DNA of 32,000 nucleotides from Candidatus Baldrarchaeota archaeon (GCA_019056805.1 DXJG01000001.1:90001-122000); one strand, 5' to 3'. Counted from the first letter of the stretch, positions 18,813 through 27,935 are shown. Translations and numbers: made by a program. The notes: generated by a model from the sequence alone, not told the origin.

Positions 18813-19580
18813 ATGACTTTTACTATAGCTATAACTGGAAAAGGTGGTACTGGGAAAACAACGGTTGCTGCATTGTTAATAAACTTTTTCCGTAAAAATT
18901 TTGAAGGTCCTATACTAGCCATTGATGCTGATCCAAATAACAATCTACATGAGGCTTTGGGATTAAATGTAAGTAAAACGGTTGGAGATATTCGTGAAGA
19001 AATTTTACAAAGTGAAAAATACTCCTCTCCCAGTATGTCAAAGGAAGGTTACCTCGAATACCTAATTTATGGTGAAGTTGTGGTTGAAGCGAATGGTTTT
19101 GACTTTATAGCTATGGGTAGACCTGAGGGCCCAGGATGCTACTGTTATGTAAATCATCTTTTAAGAAAAATTATAGACAATTTAGCGAGGAACTATCGTT
19201 TCATTATAATGGATACAGAGGCTGGTCTTGAACATATAAGTCGAAGAACAACCAGAGATATCGATGTTATGCTTATAACAACCGATACAAGTATAAGAAG
19301 TTTAAGAACAGCTAAGCGGATAAGAGATTTAGCTATAAGTTTAGAAACAAAAACAAAGAATTTCTATGTAGTGGTAAATAGAGCGTCTCAAGACATGTTA
19401 CCCCTAATACTTGAAGAATTAAATAAAATGAATCTAAAATTGATAGGGGTAATTCCAGAAGATCCACTTGTTCTAGAATACGATTTTAAAGGAAAACCTT
19501 TAATCGGCCTTCCCCCACACTCACCAGCAATCCAGGCTGTGGCAGATATAGTAGAAAAACTAAAACCGCTCATCCAATAA
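18813..19580 (+). CDS. cooC: CooC-family nickel-insertion ATPase, AcsF/CooC2-like
   Basis: GKGGTGKT, DADPN, MGRPEGPGCYC, DTEAGLEHISR. Confidence 0.9.
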   Translation: MTFTIAITGKGGTGKTTVAALLINFFRKNFEGPILAIDADPNNNLHEALGLNVSKTVGDIREEILQSEKYSSPSMSKEGYLEYLIYGEVVVEANGFDFIAMGRPEGPGCYCYVNHLLRKIIDNLARNYRFIIMDTEAGLEHISRRTTRDIDVMLITTDTSIRSLRTAKRIRDLAISLETKTKNFYVVVNRASQDMLPLILEELNKMNLKLIGVIPEDPLVLEYDFKGKPLIGLPPHSPAIQAVADIVEKLKPLIQ

Positions 19581-19611: not shown

Positions 19612-21042
19612 TTATTGTTTTTCTCCAAAAACTTCCTGTTTCCAGATTTTTTCTAGGAACTGTTTAATATCTGCGGAGTCTCGGGGACCTACGAAGACTC
19701 TCCAGTCTTTTAAAAGATCTTCTAGTTCTCCACTAAGTCGTGCTGCATATCCAGGAATTATGACAGTTTTATGTTGTACTTTTTCCATCGCGCCCGAAGA
19801 AACCATGGTTTCATAAATATTCTCTGCTGTTAACTTCTTACCTGCTACTGCTGACTGTACACTGGTCCCCTCGGTATCAACAACCACCAGCCATGCATCT
19901 ATCTTGTTTCTTTCAACATCATCCTTAACAATGTAATATGTTAAGGCAAAGTTCGCGGTAACCAGCAGTGGTGACATCTCATTAGGTTTACCTATTTCAT
20001 ACAATCCAGGCTTTACTGATGGAGGAACTCTGGGATCTGTATATACACAATCTCTCCATACTATTACTGGTAAAATCGGCCAAACATCAATGGAATGAAG
20101 TATAAGGATATCGGCATACCTTGACATTAGTGAAGATGCGACTATAGATTCCATAAGCCTTTTTTCATCATCATTTCCATCAAAGAGCGACCATACAGCT
20201 GCTGGAACTCCAAGCAAAGGATAGCCGACATCAGAGTCTTCTCCCTCTATTGCAGCATACCTTAAAACACTGAACATACTGATGGTGTCTAAAATAGTTC
20301 CTCCATCAACAAAAGTCCCTGGATCAAGTACAAAGTCGTCAAGGTTATAGTATTTTTTAATCGATACCGTTAAGGATTTTAGGAGTGAAAGATCTCCAGG
20401 GGCTGATACCACTAGTGGACATTTGTATTTCGAGGAAAGTTCTGCCATTTCTTTCCAGTTTTGTTTATTAGCAGCATAAATAAGAGGTTTTTTATCACCA
20501 GCTATTGTTAAAGCTTCCTCAAGAACAGTAGGATTGTAAGAGCATAAAACCAGAGGAAGTTGAGTGTGCTTTAATACAGTGGAGACGGCGGTTGAAAACT
20601 TTTTCGAATCATCGGATACACATCTTACAGCGATCCCATCAAGTTTAAGTTCCCTTCCAATTCTGATGAAACTAAAGTCATTTACAAATTTTACTCTCTT
20701 AATTAACTCTTCTTCTTCCATTTCATCATGAACATCAATCATTAATGCCGTGGGATGTCGCCAAGTGAGCTCATGCCTGTACATTACATCTTTTCCGCCA
20801 ATAGTTATAGCATTGGGTGGAATTCCTATTGTAACTTCTTTGACAGGAGATCTTAAAACTTCTAGAAGCGCCTTTAATTTTTTACCGTACTTTGGTTCAG
20901 ATAGGGGAGTACACTTTTCAACGCTTACTTGTCTTTCAATAAGTTTTGCAGCAAAAGCCATACAACTACTTTCACCGCATTCGCCACAATTTGTTTGAGG
21001 GAGGTATTTGTATACATCAAGAGGTCTCAAAATTTTTGGCAT
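19612..21042 (-). CDS. cdhE: ACDS complex gamma subunit (corrinoid Fe-S protein, large subunit)
   Basis: LPQTNCGECGESSCMAFA...KCTPL Fe-S motif; YTDPRVP; TANFALTY; IIPGYAA; VGPRDS. Confidence 0.96.
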   Translation of the reverse strand: MPKILRPLDVYKYLPQTNCGECGESSCMAFAAKLIERQVSVEKCTPLSEPKYGKKLKALLEVLRSPVKEVTIGIPPNAITIGGKDVMYRHELTWRHPTALMIDVHDEMEEEELIKRVKFVNDFSFIRIGRELKLDGIAVRCVSDDSKKFSTAVSTVLKHTQLPLVLCSYNPTVLEEALTIAGDKKPLIYAANKQNWKEMAELSSKYKCPLVVSAPGDLSLLKSLTVSIKKYYNLDDFVLDPGTFVDGGTILDTISMFSVLRYAAIEGEDSDVGYPLLGVPAAVWSLFDGNDDEKRLMESIVASSLMSRYADILILHSIDVWPILPVIVWRDCVYTDPRVPPSVKPGLYEIGKPNEMSPLLVTANFALTYYIVKDDVERNKIDAWLVVVDTEGTSVQSAVAGKKLTAENIYETMVSSGAMEKVQHKTVIIPGYAARLSGELEDLLKDWRVFVGPRDSADIKQFLEKIWKQEVFGEKQ

Positions 21043-21053
21043 GCTTAATCCTC

Positions 21054-22367
21054 CTAATACTTGGCTTCAACCCATTTTTCATAGGGAATTTCGCTTAACG
21101 GTTTTCTAACCTTTTGCAACGCTTCAGCAAATGTCTTAGCAATTTTCATTGCAAGTGGATGCATCATCATGAAGAGGTCAGCTCCAGCCAACATACAAAC
21201 GATAGCAGTAGTAGCTTCCCACAATGGGCCTCTAAGTTCTCTTGGTCCCCACTCTTCGACTTTCATCCATGCTTCTCTAGCAGCCCAAGCATTAGTAGCA
21301 GCACAACTCATAGGTACTTGAAGAATTTCTTCCCCCATTAAGGCTGCAAGTCTGATACGTTCCATGACGCTGAAGGAGTATTCTATACCGTAACCTAAGG
21401 CTCCAGTTGTAGGATCGAGAATCAGTTGATTTTTGGGTAATCCAGCTTCAAGAATTTTTCTTGAAAGTTCTTTTGCTTGGTTTATATCCATGAAAGCTAA
21501 TGCAATAGCATTTTGTCCATGCTTCACTAGAGGTTCAACAGCTTTTGGAATATCCATATCCAATGTAATAGAAGCAAATACCAGCTTTTCCCCTTCCGTA
21601 GCTTTTGCAATTTCACGAAAGATGTCAATATCCTTCTCAGGATTCCCAGAACCACCAACTATAATCGGTTCATCAATAGCTTGTAGTACATCTTCCACGG
21701 TTCTTCTTGCTTCACTAGGAGGTGTGTCTTTGATACCGGGGTCTGTACTTACAAGATGAACAGAAACTAAGTCAGCTTTATATGTTTCTATGCATTTCTT
21801 AGCCCATGCAACTGGATCTTCTAGTACGTCAGCATAAGAACGCTTAACCGGACCAGCTAATGTTGGCCGCATATCAAATACGTCTAATGCAAATAAGGGT
21901 CGATTAATCGATGTTTCCTGAAATAGGAACATAGGAGGAGTGGAATAACCTCCAAGTTTATATGTAACGCCTCTAGAACCTCCTTCGCTCTTTGTAGCTC
22001 CAAGTTGAACTTCAGCAATCTTGCTTGTGTAAGGTAATTGTGGATACTTAAAAGGTATCGACAAAAGTTCAACAACTTTTGGTGGCGCTGGAGCAGCCGG
22101 AGTTACAGGTGGCACTCCTAAAACTCGCAAACCTTGTGGAGAAGCTTCAACAAGAAACTCTATTTTTCCTGTCGCTCCTGGCATAACTGGCTCCAGAGAT
22201 AATTTAAATAATTCTGGTCTTCCTGGAGCAGCTGCTGGTACAATTTCAATCGCAAATTCCTCCGCATCTATCGTTACATCCTCTAACTCTACGTTATCAG
22301 TTTCAGAAAGTAGTTTCAAAAGGTCAATTACTATTTTTTCATTTTCTTCCTTTTTTTCTTCCTTCAT
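21054..22367 (-). CDS. cdhD: ACDS complex delta subunit (corrinoid Fe-S protein, small subunit)
   Basis: EVQLGATKSEGGSR, IIVGGSGNPEKD, DPTTGALGYGIEY, AWAAREAW, GADLFMMMHP; GGAGG SD 7 nt before the ATG. Confidence 0.96.
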   Translation of the reverse strand: MKEEKKEENEKIVIDLLKLLSETDNVELEDVTIDAEEFAIEIVPAAAPGRPELFKLSLEPVMPGATGKIEFLVEASPQGLRVLGVPPVTPAAPAPPKVVELLSIPFKYPQLPYTSKIAEVQLGATKSEGGSRGVTYKLGGYSTPPMFLFQETSINRPLFALDVFDMRPTLAGPVKRSYADVLEDPVAWAKKCIETYKADLVSVHLVSTDPGIKDTPPSEARRTVEDVLQAIDEPIIVGGSGNPEKDIDIFREIAKATEGEKLVFASITLDMDIPKAVEPLVKHGQNAIALAFMDINQAKELSRKILEAGLPKNQLILDPTTGALGYGIEYSFSVMERIRLAALMGEEILQVPMSCAATNAWAAREAWMKVEEWGPRELRGPLWEATTAIVCMLAGADLFMMMHPLAMKIAKTFAEALQKVRKPLSEIPYEKWVEAKY

Positions 22368-22506
22368 GGGAGGCCTCCAGAGGCTTTATTATAACCTTTT
22401 CTGCTTGAATCTCCACTCCTTCTAATTCTAAAGTTACATTTTGCTGCAAAATTTTTGACAGAAATGAAACAATGTCAATTTCCTTTGATTTATTGGATGA
22501 AGTCAC
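22339..22506 (-). CDS. Unannotated 55-aa microprotein homologous to the CdhD N-terminal module
   Basis: GTG 22506 to TGA 22339 gives MTSSNKSKEIDIVSFLSKILQQNVTLELEGVEIQAEKVIIKPLEASHEGRKKGRK. Gap-free 15/40 identity to CdhD residues 1-40; fills the 145-bp cdhC-cdhD gap; purine-rich GAGGGGAAGTGA upstream. Confidence 0.75.
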   Translation of the reverse strand: MTSSNKSKEIDIVSFLSKILQQNVTLELEGVEIQAEKVIIKPLEASHEGRKKGRK

Positions 22507-22512
22507 TGTGAA

Positions 22513-23946
22513 TCACTTCCCCTCGGTTTTCTTAATTATAACCTTGTTTATGTGAATTTTTGCGCCCTTTAGAATTATCTTTATCCCACCAGCTGGAACA
22601 GCTTGGCCAGCAACAGGAAGAGCTGTGGGCAATGATACTTGTGGAATACCTATAGTTGTGGGTTGTTCAGGTACAGCGGCAGCTTCTTCAGCAGCTGCTT
22701 CTTCAGCAGCTGCAGCTTCCATTTCACGGATTTTCTCAGCTACTGGATGGTTTTTCTCAAGCAGGAACTTTTTCAACTCTTCTATATTAGTTGCGTCTTT
22801 TTCTGTCGCTATTTTGTCTACCAATTCTTCCGGTATAGCATCCTTTACTCGCATTTTTAGTTCTTCAGGCATCCATACAACTCTATTCCAACCGCCATCA
22901 GCATAGAAGAACTTTCTAGATCGCATATACTCGATTCCTATTCCCAAGAATCCTTCTGTTTGTATTCCACCACCCGTTTGAGCTGCCATAGATGAGAATG
23001 GTAATCCGTTTACAGCCTCTCCTCTGAAACCTCGATGTACAATTCCTATACCATCAACTTCTGGTATATAGAAAGCTATACATTCAAAGCATCCGCACGA
23101 TGTATGAGGATATTCAAACATACTGTAAAGGTAAACTCTTTTTACTGATCCAAGTGATCGTTGTGCAACTACTTCGTTTATACCACTCCATTCACCTTTA
23201 ACAGGGTCTAAACATTCACCTTTTGGAATTGGAAAGTTTGGTCCCTTTGGATCTATATTAGCTGAAGCTCTTGCGTCAAGCCAGGTTAGAGAACCGCAAA
23301 GCGATATTCTTTCCGGCGTGATTACACAAACATGCGTTGGTGCAAACGATTGACAAAGTACACAACCGTAGAACATATCAACTTCTTCGTCTTTTAGTCC
23401 TCTAACTCGGGCATCTCTGGCTTCATATACCTGCATTGCTTCTTCAAATTTCTTGGCTACCTCATCTGGATCTGTTATAAAGGTTACCTGCATTTTTTCT
23501 ATGTAGGGCATTTCAGCTTTGAATAGTTTAATTAGTGCCATACCCCACCATTTTAGAGAATCTAGACCCTTCTTTACAGATTTTTTAGCGATTCTTATCC
23601 AGATATCGTATCTCTGGTTTAAGTGCATTATACCTTCGATGTAGTTTGTGTACATGTGGATACGTCGTTCAACGACTCCTTCGAGATCTGTTTCAAGTTT
23701 TGGTCCTGCAATTTCTATAAGTATGCCTAGTGGGTAGCTTCCCCCTTCTTTTAAATCTTTTAAATCTGGTCCAATGATTTGTACTTTTTCATCCTCTACT
23801 TCATCCATAGACCTTACTCGTACAAGTTCAAATTTGTGTTCTACTTTTGGTCCGCCAAATTCAAGGTACATATCATCTCTTCTTATTCTTTGCCCTTCAA
23901 AAGCTGGACTTATTTCAATAGGGAAACCAGCAAATGCTGATGACAT
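22513..23946 (-). CDS. cdhC: ACDS complex beta subunit (acetyl-CoA synthase)
   Basis: FEGQRIRR, FYGCVLCQSFAPTHVC, RISLCG and HTSCGCFE A-cluster motifs; C-terminal Ala/Glu linker. Confidence 0.97.
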   Translation of the reverse strand: MSSAFAGFPIEISPAFEGQRIRRDDMYLEFGGPKVEHKFELVRVRSMDEVEDEKVQIIGPDLKDLKEGGSYPLGILIEIAGPKLETDLEGVVERRIHMYTNYIEGIMHLNQRYDIWIRIAKKSVKKGLDSLKWWGMALIKLFKAEMPYIEKMQVTFITDPDEVAKKFEEAMQVYEARDARVRGLKDEEVDMFYGCVLCQSFAPTHVCVITPERISLCGSLTWLDARASANIDPKGPNFPIPKGECLDPVKGEWSGINEVVAQRSLGSVKRVYLYSMFEYPHTSCGCFECIAFYIPEVDGIGIVHRGFRGEAVNGLPFSSMAAQTGGGIQTEGFLGIGIEYMRSRKFFYADGGWNRVVWMPEELKMRVKDAIPEELVDKIATEKDATNIEELKKFLLEKNHPVAEKIREMEAAAAEEAAAEEAAAVPEQPTTIGIPQVSLPTALPVAGQAVPAGGIKIILKGAKIHINKVIIKKTEGK

Positions 23947-23957
23947 TTTTTACCCTC

Positions 23958-24503
23958 CTAATCTTTTTTCTTTTCTTCTTTTAGAGTTTTCATTAAAATG
24001 TTAAGATTTTCAATCCAATCTTTCTCAGACAAATTCTGGAATGACCATGTAGCGTTAGGGTGATAATATCTGTCAAGAGATAGAGTTCTTATTTGTGGCG
24101 CAAAGTTCTTTAAACATGAAAGCAATTGTGATTGCAATTGATACGTGATTCCAACATATACCACTATGTCATGTGGTTTTGAACCATCAAGACTCCATTC
24201 AGGGTCTCTTAACCTATCGGTGATTTCTATAGCACCCATCGATAATGCGGGTTCTACGCCACGTTCTAAAAAGGCACTTAATGTGCTAGAAGTAGCGACA
24301 ATGGGAATTTTAGCGACCTCAGCAATTTCAATAACATAGTCTAAGAGGAGTTTCTCTCCAACTTTAACCTTTAAAGCTTCTGCTCCAACTATTATTAATG
24401 GATTTTTAGCCTTTTTTAACAGTTTTCCCGCTACTTCCCCAGTTAGTTTTAAAGCCGTTTTTGGTCCTGGAACATTACCCAACTGCCAAGGAGTAATGGA
24501 CAT
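23958..24503 (-). CDS. cdhB: ACDS complex epsilon subunit
   Basis: PWQLGNVPGPK, KKAKNPLIIVG, DRLRDPEW, and LDRYYHPNATWSF; operon position. Confidence 0.93.
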   Translation of the reverse strand: MSITPWQLGNVPGPKTALKLTGEVAGKLLKKAKNPLIIVGAEALKVKVGEKLLLDYVIEIAEVAKIPIVATSSTLSAFLERGVEPALSMGAIEITDRLRDPEWSLDGSKPHDIVVYVGITYQLQSQLLSCLKNFAPQIRTLSLDRYYHPNATWSFQNLSEKDWIENLNILMKTLKEEKKKD

Positions 24504-24516
24504 AGTTGTTCACCCC

Positions 24517-26877
24517 CTACTTTTTAACCCTTATTAAACGTTCTAGTAGGGTTGGGTCAACCACGGGTTTTTCCCAAGGTTCCCAGCCAACTTCTTTCAG
24601 ATATTCCATAATTTCTCCTTTGAAAGTAATAGGAATATCAGCCTCTGTTCGAATGAACATGTGCAGATCATCTGGTAGTCGCCTGTAATATTTCTTATAT
24701 AACTCAACATAGTGAGTCAATTTTATCATTCTACCCTTAGTTGTATCATTTGGTCTTAGACAAAGTTTAGCAGTCATAACAATAGCCTCTTCGCGAGTCT
24801 CGGCTACATAAACTAAATGTTCAGGTGCGGGACCAACCCAAACTCTATCACCAGTTCTTGCATCGTATACTGTGAAACTTTCTCTATCCTCCCTCCGACC
24901 GAGATACAATCGTCTATATTTAGCACCCTGAGGACCAACAATTACAGGTACGCCAAGTCTATTAAAGCCAGTAGCTATCGATGCAGCTTTTTGTGACATG
25001 GCACCCCAAGCAACTCCACAAGCACCAACCCTATTCAAAACATAATCCGCAATTTCTTCATAATTGGCCCTTAATGGACGCCTTGCGAAGATATTAGCTA
25101 TTTTGATGGCCGCACCAGCTATGTGAGCATTAGCTACACATGATCCAACATTTACAAGCCCCCCAGCATCGAAAGCCCCAGAATATTCCTCATACAATGT
25201 TTTTCCTTCTTCCGTTCTATACATGGCTATGCTCATAGCTGAACAGCCTGAAACCGTAACAATGAATCTTCTTCTTAAGAATTCTTCAGCCATTATTGCA
25301 ACGTCACGTCCACCTTCGGGGTAATTAGCACATCCAACATAAGCTACTACACCTGGAATTTCACCAAAAACTATTGGTGAACCAACTTCTCTAATTTCAG
25401 TATCAAGAATAGGGCCTCTACCTACCCTTATCTTGTATCGCTCCGTCTTTATTTTTAATTCAGCAGCACTTACGATTAAGCTATGAATTGGAATATCCCT
25501 TGGACATTCACTTTCACAACGAGCACAACCCAAACAATAATCATAAAGTTCTGCTAATTTATCGAAATTACCTTGTCTTGCAGCAAATACCGCTTCATCT
25601 GTTGGTAGATCGATCGGGCAATTTCTTCTACACCTACCACATTTCGTACATTTCTCTGCTACTTTCTTTAAGTCAGCTTTGTCAGGTAAGGACTTAAACT
25701 TCTTTCTAATAGGTGCAATTCTCAATGCGGTTAATACTGCTACAGCTCCAGCCTTTTCTAAATCAAGTATCAAAACACCAGGGTATTTTCCAGAAACCAA
25801 TGCGTCAACTATTTCCTCTACGGGTTTATTAGTCATATCGGGTAATCCATGACATGCTTTATCGGATGTAGCGATGACAGGTGTTTTTACACGCTGAGCT
25901 TCTGAAAGAACCATTATATGAATACATTGTTCATCAAGAATTAGCACATCAGCAGCTCCAGACCTAATGAAGCGAATTTGATGTGAAATTGGACCAACTA
26001 TCTTAGCTTGTTCATCATACCGCGTTAAGTCATGAGCGGTACAACATAATCCTAGAACTTCTATTGTCTCTCCAGGTCTTCCAAGACCATTCTTTTTCAT
26101 AAAATCTATTATTTCTACACCACTGGAGACGTTATGACCTATACAAAGAATCACGGGTTTTGTCGTGTCAGCAAGCCCCATACCAACTTCCGTCAATGGG
26201 GCGTCAGGTTTTCCTTTTGGAAAATTATATGTAATTATTTGAGCTACATCTGCAACTTCCATTGCTAAGTGATCTAACATACCTAGATGAAGACTCTTTG
26301 ACTCAAAATCTAAATAACTACCTTCTTGCCCTGTATGTGCTGCAGCCAGTGTCTGGACAATCTGTTCTTCTACATATTTTAATATGTAAGAGAGATCTCC
26401 AAGTGTTTTTGGTTTAATTCCTGTGATCAGTCTGCTTATTGGCATTTCAACATAGATGTCCGACCCTAGGTCTATTGGCCAGTTTTCACCATATTTTTCA
26501 ATTAGATGATCTACTAGGTGTCTTGCATGACTCGTGTGTGTTGAAGCCCCTATGGCACATGCTATTAATACTATTCGTCCTTGTTGAGCGCCTATGTCAA
26601 GTCCGCATGCTCCCCTCTTACCAGCGGTTAAATCACATTTTCCATAAGTGCAAAGGCAACATAAATCGCAAAAGGGCATATAAAAAGGCCTATAACGTTT
26701 TAATAATTTCATATCCCATTCTCTAAGAGTGGTTATTTTTGGCATAGGTGTAGGTCCCATAGGTTCCCATTCTTCTTCCATAGCAAGACGGCCAATAGCA
26801 ATTTCAATATCTTCAAGTGAAATTCCACTACCTTTAAGAGATTTTACCGAGAATTTTATTGGTCCCTTTTCAACCAC
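24517..26877 (-). CDS. cdhA: ACDS complex alpha subunit (archaeal Ni-CO dehydrogenase)
   Basis: CDLCCLCTYGKC, CIGHN, LCCTAHD, DEQC, two internal CxxCxxCxxxCP ferredoxin motifs, VGCAN, VGSCVANAH. Confidence 0.97.
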   Translation of the reverse strand: MVEKGPIKFSVKSLKGSGISLEDIEIAIGRLAMEEEWEPMGPTPMPKITTLREWDMKLLKRYRPFYMPFCDLCCLCTYGKCDLTAGKRGACGLDIGAQQGRIVLIACAIGASTHTSHARHLVDHLIEKYGENWPIDLGSDIYVEMPISRLITGIKPKTLGDLSYILKYVEEQIVQTLAAAHTGQEGSYLDFESKSLHLGMLDHLAMEVADVAQIITYNFPKGKPDAPLTEVGMGLADTTKPVILCIGHNVSSGVEIIDFMKKNGLGRPGETIEVLGLCCTAHDLTRYDEQAKIVGPISHQIRFIRSGAADVLILDEQCIHIMVLSEAQRVKTPVIATSDKACHGLPDMTNKPVEEIVDALVSGKYPGVLILDLEKAGAVAVLTALRIAPIRKKFKSLPDKADLKKVAEKCTKCGRCRRNCPIDLPTDEAVFAARQGNFDKLAELYDYCLGCARCESECPRDIPIHSLIVSAAELKIKTERYKIRVGRGPILDTEIREVGSPIVFGEIPGVVAYVGCANYPEGGRDVAIMAEEFLRRRFIVTVSGCSAMSIAMYRTEEGKTLYEEYSGAFDAGGLVNVGSCVANAHIAGAAIKIANIFARRPLRANYEEIADYVLNRVGACGVAWGAMSQKAASIATGFNRLGVPVIVGPQGAKYRRLYLGRREDRESFTVYDARTGDRVWVGPAPEHLVYVAETREEAIVMTAKLCLRPNDTTKGRMIKLTHYVELYKKYYRRLPDDLHMFIRTEADIPITFKGEIMEYLKEVGWEPWEKPVVDPTLLERLIRVKK

Positions 26878-27146: not shown

Positions 27147-27935
27147 TTATAATAAAGATTTTTTCAATAATTCTACTGCTTTAATTGCTGGCGAAGATGG
27201 AACATAGTCGATGGGGGCTTTCTTTATCATATCAGCATAAGCAATTTGTTTATCAAAAGGTATGACAGCAAGCAGCGATATCTGATGTTTTTCCAATTCT
27301 TCTTTTACAAAACGTTCTTCTTCACTTGTTGATATCTTATTAGCCACAACAGCAAATTTACGAATCCCAATATCTAATGCTAACTTCTTTATACGGCAAG
27401 CAGTCTCAATGGATTTAAAACTTGGCTCAACAACAGCTAGCATTATGTCCACGTTCCTAGCGGTTCCACGCCCAAGATGTTCTATACCAGCTTCCATATC
27501 AAGGATAACAAACTCATCTCTATCAACAACTAAATATCTAAGTAAATTCCTAAGAAAAGCATGGGCTGGACAAAGACATCCTGTTCCTCCATTTCGAACG
27601 GTTCCCATAACTAAAAGCATAACTCCATCAGGACCTCTAACTCCGAACCGATCAACAATATCATCGACCTTGGGGAACAAATTAAATGCTCCACCAAGTG
27701 GAAGGCCAGGAATTTTCGTTCGTTCCTCTATAAGTTCTCTATTGACTGCAAGAGGAACTATTCTCGATATTTCTTCTTTTCTTAACCCTATCGTATAAGC
27801 AAGATTTGTATTTGGATCGGCATCTACCGCTAATACCTTATAACCATCCCTAGCTAGAATCCTAGCCAAAGTTCCAGCAATGAAAGTCTTACCAACTCCG
27901 CCTTTACCAGTAATAGCTAGTTTCACACCTTTCAC
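27147..27935 (-). CDS. cooC: CooC-family nickel-insertion ATPase, CooC1-like
   Basis: GKGGVGKT, DADPN, GGTGCLCP, DMEAGIEHLGRGT. Confidence 0.92.
   Translation of the reverse strand: MKGVKLAITGKGGVGKTFIAGTLARILARDGYKVLAVDADPNTNLAYTIGLRKEEISRIVPLAVNRELIEERTKIPGLPLGGAFNLFPKVDDIVDRFGVRGPDGVMLLVMGTVRNGGTGCLCPAHAFLRNLLRYLVVDRDEFVILDMEAGIEHLGRGTARNVDIMLAVVEPSFKSIETACRIKKLALDIGIRKFAVVANKISTSEEERFVKEELEKHQISLLAVIPFDKQIAYADMIKKAPIDYVPSSPAIKAVELLKKSLL

Follow-up and report, generated by a model that had tools for sequence, protein, structure and literature searches.

The acetyl-CoA decarbonylase/synthase complex (ACDS), an assembly of roughly 2 MDa, makes or splits acetyl-CoA in methanogens and many uncultured archaea. 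For Methanosarcina acetivorans it has been shown that the complex is built around CdhD, which oligomerises via a coiled coil (residues 45-68), and proposed that conserved stretches described as 'disordered', residues 1-43 in CdhA and 401-470 in CdhC, bind the CdhD region and so tether CODH (carbon monoxide dehydrogenase) as well as ACS (acetyl-CoA synthase) (Zimmer et al., bioRxiv July 2026, PMC13370988); the same work states that biochemical data on the interacting termini are lacking. By cryo-electron microscopy, a CdhC extension of about 75 residues was not resolved and its function was called unknown, and upon limited proteolysis the beta subunit is obtained as an isolated component in truncated form (Biester et al., 2024, PMC11474084). 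Here, these systems are compared with the cdh operon on a 32,000-nucleotide stretch of DNA (the window) from a Candidatus Baldrarchaeota archaeon (GCA_019056805.1, DXJG01000001.1:90001-122000). A first-pass annotation of the window had described a single 16-residue motif at the N-terminus of CdhA, the C-terminus of CdhC, the N-terminus of CdhD and in a microprotein encoded between cdhC and cdhD, and had proposed it as a hub on which the subunits assemble.

The reading that we prefer, with a probability of about 0.6, is that the four peptides are copies of one docking module of about 16-20 residues, which sits on the flexible ends of CODH, ACS and the corrinoid iron-sulfur protein (CoFeSP) and co-assembles. 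Conservation, co-occurrence, charge compensation, stand-alone copies and a published crosslink together provide good support for a role of the motif in supercomplex assembly, and to this extent the proposed hub stands. Most likely, the motif is the docking element of the ACDS tethers.

Motif-bearing termini in the window

The proteins encoded in the window possess the terminal tether regions as defined by Zimmer et al. (2026). The motif copies and their surroundings are the following.

26776..26865, minus strand: CdhA N-terminal module (residues 5-34), the motif with a strand-like segment upstream of it; from the translation and about 50 orthologous operons
26779-26826, minus strand: CdhA motif 16-mer (residues 18-33); exact translation
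22591..22737, minus strand: flexible Ala/Glu/Pro-rich CdhC linker (residues about 404-452); from the sequence
22534..22581, minus strand: basic C-terminal motif of CdhC (residues 456-471); exact translation
22387-22434, minus strand: microprotein motif (residues 25-40), preceded by a helix at about 22438-22479
22248..22334, minus strand: CdhD N-terminal module, a helix (residues about 12-23) followed by the acidic motif; from the translation
22248-22295, minus strand: acidic CdhD motif (residues 25-40); exact translation

The coordinates and translations given for the four 16-mers in the first-pass annotation are exact, the CdhC copy is basic (+4) and the CdhD copy acidic (-6) as claimed, and the Ala/Pro-rich linkers of CdhC and CdhD are both seen in the sequence. 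The CdhC linker varies in length and composition between orthologues while the tail motif is retained. Leucine at position 4 and isoleucine at position 9 had been described as invariant. This is correct for the four copies in the window only; in the families at large, about 90% of the residues found there are hydrophobic and neither position is invariant.

Conservation and likeness across archaea

Eighty cdh operons were fetched from Bathyarchaeia, Asgard archaea, Hadarchaeota, Methanosarcinales, Methanomicrobiales, Archaeoglobi and others. Weighted family profiles were built without the clade of the window, and each 16-column motif was slid over all five Cdh subunits, that is over about 2050 windows. 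The termini of CdhA, CdhC and CdhD are all strongly conserved in these operons, which bears out archaea-wide that the motif is kept at the orthologous ends. The CdhC tail follows the consensus GG-f-KIILKnAKIyAeKVIIK and is retained in at least 70 operons. CdhA starts with v-VKi-ELkT followed by iKnLElSIGKvv, a pattern conserved over about 50 orthologous operons, and in CdhD a helix (L..LLeLLaK) comes first and EIELEDfEmEvgdLEi next, a helix-plus-motif layout that is kept across archaea.

In the profile comparison, the motifs at CdhC residue 456 and CdhD residue 25 are each other's first-ranking match among the roughly 2050 windows, and the motif at CdhA residue 18 ranks 2-4 against both of them, always in the claimed register. 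When Bathyarchaeia, Asgard archaea, Methanosarcinales and other Euryarchaeota are taken singly, ranks lie mostly between 1 and 21, with the exception of Methanosarcinales, where the CdhD query placed CdhC at rank 62 and two further comparisons gave no score. Column-shuffled terminal profiles yielded P values of 0.0003 for CdhC with CdhD, 0.018 for CdhA with CdhD and 0.039 for CdhA with CdhC. Furthermore, hhalign recovers the claimed register in five of five comparisons. The microprotein aligns with the CdhC tail at P=1.8e-6 (probability 90%) and with the CdhD N-terminus at P=8.4e-6 (probability 83%); of the hhalign comparisons, only these two are significant. At the level of family profiles, the likeness of the three terminal motifs appears to be real.

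Residue pattern and charge compensation

Hydrophobic residues, mostly beta-branched ones, occupy positions 4, 7, 9, 11 and 14 in the CdhA, CdhC and CdhD families alike, and positions 6 and 12 are dominated by Gly, Asn and Asp. Judged from sequence, such a pattern would fit short strands with tight turns better than an amphipathic helix. The families differ in mean net charge, which amounts to +3.2 for CdhC, -5.4 for CdhD and -0.5 for CdhA. Over 35 operons the charge of the CdhC copy is inversely correlated with that of CdhD (rho -0.64) and with that of CdhA (rho -0.58). The respective values are -0.77 and -0.72 inside Bathyarchaeia, and both are -0.57 outside this group.

Co-occurrence and detached copies

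All three motifs are present in 38 of the 44 operons that could be assessed. Three of the six exceptions lack only a detectable CdhC tail and the other three lack two or all of the motifs. The latter include two operons of bacterial type: one from Dehalococcoidia (L049), with none of the three motifs, and one from NPL-UPA2 (L073), in which neither CdhC nor CdhD has its motif and the CdhA match is marginal. In the Dehalococcoidia metagenome-assembled genome (MAG), the TIM barrel of CdhD is fused in frame to the CdhA N-terminus with a masked stretch between them (L049:1777-4813); a covalent CdhD-CdhA fusion may replace the non-covalent tether here.

In two operons (L078 and L081), CdhC has no tail and the motif resides in a separate gene of about 70 codons directly after the cdhC stop codon:

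L078:4225-4434 and L081:6849-7040: detached genes for CdhC-type motifs, right after cdhC

These genes belong to a family of at least 13 clusters with proteins of 58-78 residues, built up of PLKLxLKK repeats (two or three), a linker and a near-invariant IILKNAKIhAdKVIIK. Members stem from Altiarchaeota and Methanobacteriota MAGs, and the CdhC proteins encoded beside them end in an extra domain of about 55 residues with a faint helix-turn-helix-like match. A CdhD-type counterpart is found at the end of a Bathyarchaeia cdhABC cluster (L031:4327-4545), where a 73-residue protein comprises only the CdhD N-terminal helix and motif with a short helical tail; neither cdhD nor cdhE follows on this contig. 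In yet another operon (L035), the CdhD copy is no longer acidic and an acidic stand-alone copy is present, which suggests that motif copies may be able to substitute for one another.

A crosslink between two motif regions

Zimmer et al. (2026) report one confident photo-crosslink, from CdhA E15 to CdhC K452. In CdhA from Methanosarcina species, E15 is position 5 of the motif. With the numbering of M. thermophila as a stand-in for M. acetivorans, the lysines near residue 452 of CdhC are K450, K454 and K457, all of them inside the motif, and the crosslinked K452 would accordingly be located in the CdhC motif or next to it. Proximity of the CdhA and CdhC motifs is thus documented in the literature.

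The microprotein

The fourth copy is encoded by a small open reading frame (ORF) that is accompanied by a direct repeat.

22339..22506, minus strand: microprotein gene, 55 amino acids, GTG start
22384..22410 with 22531-22557: 27-nucleotide direct repeat, 78% identity, spacing 147 nucleotides (49 codons)

Its GTG start lies six nucleotides past the cdhC stop codon, and its 3' end overlaps the start of cdhD by 29 nucleotides (22339-22367) in another frame and across a run of seven A. Relatives repeat this stop-start overlap with cdhD, which suggests translational coupling. A frameshifted fusion of the small ORF with cdhD across the A-run was rejected, since divergent operons repeat this layout with separate start and stop codons.

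Syntenic orthologues with their own start codons and a length of 44-72 residues are present in L092, L094, L096, L098, L034, L082, L035, L039, L099, L100 and L102, and probably in L101; they are always situated directly upstream of cdhD and follow cdhC wherever this is visible. The microprotein gene is therefore a real syntenic gene. Public records label the relatives 'hypothetical protein', no Pfam or NCBIfam model scores above threshold, and an exhaustive profile search of 1.84 billion proteins returned only 14 small representatives of the microprotein type. Hidden Markov models (HMMs) of the CdhC tail (E=0.0015) and of the CdhD N-terminus (E=0.0024) each rank the microprotein second among the 15,592 ORFs of the genome. 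Single sequences from the window were compared by setting the claimed register against the best 16-mer pair in shuffled termini; here the microprotein is significantly similar to CdhC (P=0.0085) and CdhD (P=0.009), and its likeness to CdhA does not exceed that of shuffled termini (P=0.33).

Taken apart, the microprotein resembles CdhD alone in its helix, CdhD most closely in its first strand and CdhC most closely in its second. The protein is a chimera in which helix and first strand are CdhD-like and the second strand is CdhC-like. The direct repeat ties the second strand to that of CdhC and is weak when taken alone. A tandem duplication spanning the cdhC/cdhD junction would agree with these features and, with breakpoints inside both motifs, would yield exactly the microprotein gene. 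AlphaFold2 predicts a confident helix for the microprotein alone and an unpaired, likewise confident stretch for residues 21-40 (predicted local distance difference test, pLDDT, about 87).

A docking module on flexible tethers

On our reading, the docking module would be made up of amphipathic stretches of strand-like character, interrupted by residues that form turns, with a short helix preceding the CdhD copy. The basic CdhC copy would pair with the acidic CdhD and the near-neutral CdhA copies via shared hydrophobic positions and opposite charges, and the resulting small inter-subunit beta structure would hold one CODH, one ACS and one CoFeSP on Ala/Pro-rich tethers, so that ACS could swing between its two partners. 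The microprotein would be an extra, body-less copy, most likely filling a further place in the same assembly. Higher oligomerisation would be left to lineage-specific elements such as the coiled coil in Methanosarcina and perhaps a beta-rich CdhD insert in the clade of the window. We infer the beta conformation, the contact with the CdhD copy, the stoichiometry and the role of the microprotein. Indirect support for the mixed beta-sheet or barrel that the first-pass annotation had suggested comes from the alternating beta-branched pattern with Gly, Asn or Asp at positions 6 and 12, from the charge compensation and from the published crosslink of CdhA with CdhC. A bolder and more tentative version sees the motif, rather than the Methanosarcina coiled coil, as the ancestral, universal glue of archaeal ACDS, with the termini of three enzymes and, in some lineages, the microproteins co-folding into a charge-matched, split mini-domain of beta structure that would keep the megadalton, carbon-fixing assembly together. 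If this were true, the microproteins would be genuine extra subunits that set or cap the stoichiometry.

Several points weigh against a common docking module. The window sequences of CdhA and CdhC (P=0.76), CdhC and CdhD (P=0.98) and CdhA and CdhD (P=0.09) are no more alike than shuffled termini, and by the refuting condition that the first-pass annotation had set the three-way likeness consequently fails at the level of single sequences, whereas that of the microprotein with CdhC and CdhD withstands the same shuffling. Direct pairwise hhalign comparison among CdhA, CdhC and CdhD gives P=0.003-0.02 at probabilities of only 2.6-11.5%, so that common descent of all three motifs is not shown and their likeness could be convergent. 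The P values of the charge correlations are overstated because related operons are not independent. DSSP assigns no strands in the AlphaFold2 model of the microprotein. In the study on M. acetivorans, the terminal regions are called disordered, the CdhD coiled coil was the only structure that AlphaFold2 returned for the three of them, and the reported crosslinks between CdhC and CdhD all sit in folded domains, none in the CdhD N-terminus (PMC13370988).

Part of this evidence fits a situation in which the termini dock elsewhere, each at a separate site, be it part of a folded domain or of a scaffold particular to a lineage such as the CdhD coiled coil or insert, and in which the common pattern is that of a convergent strand-addition peptide and no mixed sheet exists. 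The low hhalign probabilities, the absent single-sequence signal and a terminal crosslink that is reported for CdhA with CdhC and not for the CdhD N-terminus all agree with separate docking. Nevertheless, we consider it unlikely: the charge of CdhC compensates that of both partners in two disjoint sets of clades, the best cross-family matches share one register, a chimeric CdhD/CdhC microprotein is maintained, and stand-alone copies are retained where the fused copy has been lost or altered.

The same shuffle test would also agree with mere chance likeness of amphipathic beta-branched segments in unrelated roles, in which case only the microprotein would be a true relative of CdhC and CdhD, left behind by duplication, and the motif profile does indeed match hairpins of unrelated cadherin-like repeat proteins as well. 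Such an explanation is improbable in view of ranks of 1-4 among about 2050 windows in a register named beforehand, obtained without the window's clade and largely repeated in four clades, of column-shuffle P values down to 0.0003, of motifs that are present or absent together and of a published crosslink that joins two of them.

The CdhD insert and the coiled coil

Between motif and TIM barrel, at the place of the coiled-coil segment of Methanosarcina, CdhD from the window carries an insert.

22068..22247, minus strand: clade-specific CdhD insert (residues about 41-100), conserved only in the window's clade (L092-L098) and in L034

Its pattern is …FKLSLEP…GKIEFLVEASP.GLR.L…. Read directly, residues 41-100 contain no leucine-zipper helix and are Pro/Ala-rich with strand-like segments, and the insert does not belong to the coiled-coil type. 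AlphaFold2 places strands in the insert at low confidence (CdhD residues 1-110, mean pLDDT 53.5), and the insert may be the oligomerisation element of this clade. CdhD from Bathyarchaeia has a short Pro/Ala linker straight after the motif. As the coiled coil has no visible counterpart in the clade of the window or in Bathyarchaeia, it is the motif, not the coiled coil, that is widely conserved. By this reading, the published coiled coil would be something added in a particular lineage and not the general principle.

Operon, neighbouring genes and wider searches

The cdh operon is located on the minus strand in the order cdhA-B-C-microprotein gene-D-E.

24517..26877, minus strand: cdhA, CODH alpha subunit, 786 amino acids, GTG start; TIGR00314, 1218 bits (cutoff 781)
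23958..24503, minus strand: cdhB, epsilon subunit; TIGR00315, 131 bits (cutoff 101)
22513..23946, minus strand: cdhC, ACS beta subunit, 477 amino acids; TIGR00316, 675 bits (cutoff 356)
21054..22367, minus strand: cdhD, CoFeSP small subunit, 437 amino acids; TIGR00381, 399 bits (cutoff 253)
19612..21042, minus strand: cdhE, CoFeSP large subunit; NF003195, 565 bits (cutoff 306)

All five Cdh subunits exceed the curated NCBIfam equivalog cutoffs and are encoded in one operon, which identifies the complex as an archaeal five-subunit ACDS (CdhABCDE). The TIGR00316 model spans CdhC residues 5-473 and so takes in the tail. In two genomes of the same genus (G001 and G003), CdhD is 47-49% identical to that of the window and the microprotein is absent; the latter was not found in any of three same-genus genomes, the third of which gave no CdhD match. 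The closest operons are found on other metagenome contigs, with 77-79% identity in CdhC. Lateral acquisition of the operon may account for this, as may a very broad genus.

A gene for a CooC/CbiA-type P-loop ATPase is present on each side of the operon (18813-19580 and 27147-27935, on opposite strands); the two products are probably nickel-insertion accessory proteins. With such genes at the flanks, the motif could be a recognition tag for one common factor, be it a CooC/AcsF-type maturation ATPase, a chaperone or a protease, and not a structural element. A shared terminal peptide on linkers is typical of targeting peptides such as the encapsulation peptides of microcompartments. We give this explanation a slim chance, as opposite, compensating charges fit mutual binding better than a single receptor and as CdhD bears the motif yet has no nickel site to mature. 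Moreover, a scan with the three motif HMMs, as had been proposed for finding other clients, brought up no convincing protein among the 15,592 ORFs of the genome apart from Cdh proteins and the microprotein.

Apart from these, the CdhD N-terminal HMM scored best with an open frame of 103 codons (C14:5833-6141, E=0.043), which contains LSIVSELSLEDVNLV and is probably a chance match. Five giant proteins from the exhaustive search were rejected as relatives; their matches are repeated hairpins in cadherin-like, Big_9 or YDG repeats. The hairpin profile of the microprotein matches dozens of immunoglobulin-like strand-turn-strand repeats in giant bacterial proteins (P0136-P0140). A PDB search with the microprotein profile returned only de novo helical proteins, which were likewise discarded. 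A four-chain complex prediction (CdhA 2-45, CdhD 1-50, the microprotein and CdhC 436-477) scored 0.30 against a mark of 0.32, was run with no controls and is neutral on binding.

Comparison with known systems

The general idea of a hub is already published. The first-pass annotation had advised caution about novelty, and rightly so, since a CdhD-centred hub with terminal tethers is described in PMC13370988. Just as in that work, CdhA 1-43, CdhC 401-470 and the CdhD N-terminal region are conserved here and would tether CODH and ACS to CdhD. In contrast, the hub element demonstrated there is a leucine-zipper coiled coil, whereas the part kept everywhere in our comparison is the helix plus motif upstream of it. 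Microproteins are not described there, and neither is the shared motif mentioned: the words 'motif', 'sheet' and 'beta-strand' have zero occurrences in the text. What is new here is CdhA as a third bearer of the motif, the common register, the charge compensation across operons and the finding that the coiled coil is not universal. The motif is confined to 16-20 residues, keeps one register, bears opposite charges on different subunits and exists in natural stand-alone form, and with it the question of how ACDS assembles gains exact, testable residues.

The CdhC extension of M. thermophila (PDB 9c0s/9c0t) is this very tail and ends in the same motif (GGIKLTFKNAKITIDRMII in 9c0s_E). Compared with the account of Biester et al. 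(2024), it is the last 20 or so residues that emerge as the conserved part and that match the motifs of CdhA and CdhD.

Dockerin-cohesin pairs and the encapsulation peptides of bacterial microcompartments offer a further parallel, as a short shared terminal peptide on a flexible linker gathers unrelated enzymes in these systems. Those peptides are amphipathic helices or calcium-binding domains that act on a dedicated receptor, whereas a beta-like pattern is described here and binding appears to take place between the copies themselves.

The 2-oxoacid dehydrogenase complexes, to which the first-pass annotation had likened the assembly, are built on a similar plan: an oligomeric hub lies at the centre, flexible Ala/Pro-rich linkers carry the catalytic modules, and one module shuttles. 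In the six proteins, Pfam detected neither an E2 acyltransferase core nor a lipoyl domain nor a peripheral-subunit-binding domain, which sets them apart from the E2 type. By analogy, the comparison points to a likeness of architecture and not to membership: in ACDS, the hub would consist of short terminal peptides contributed by several different subunits.

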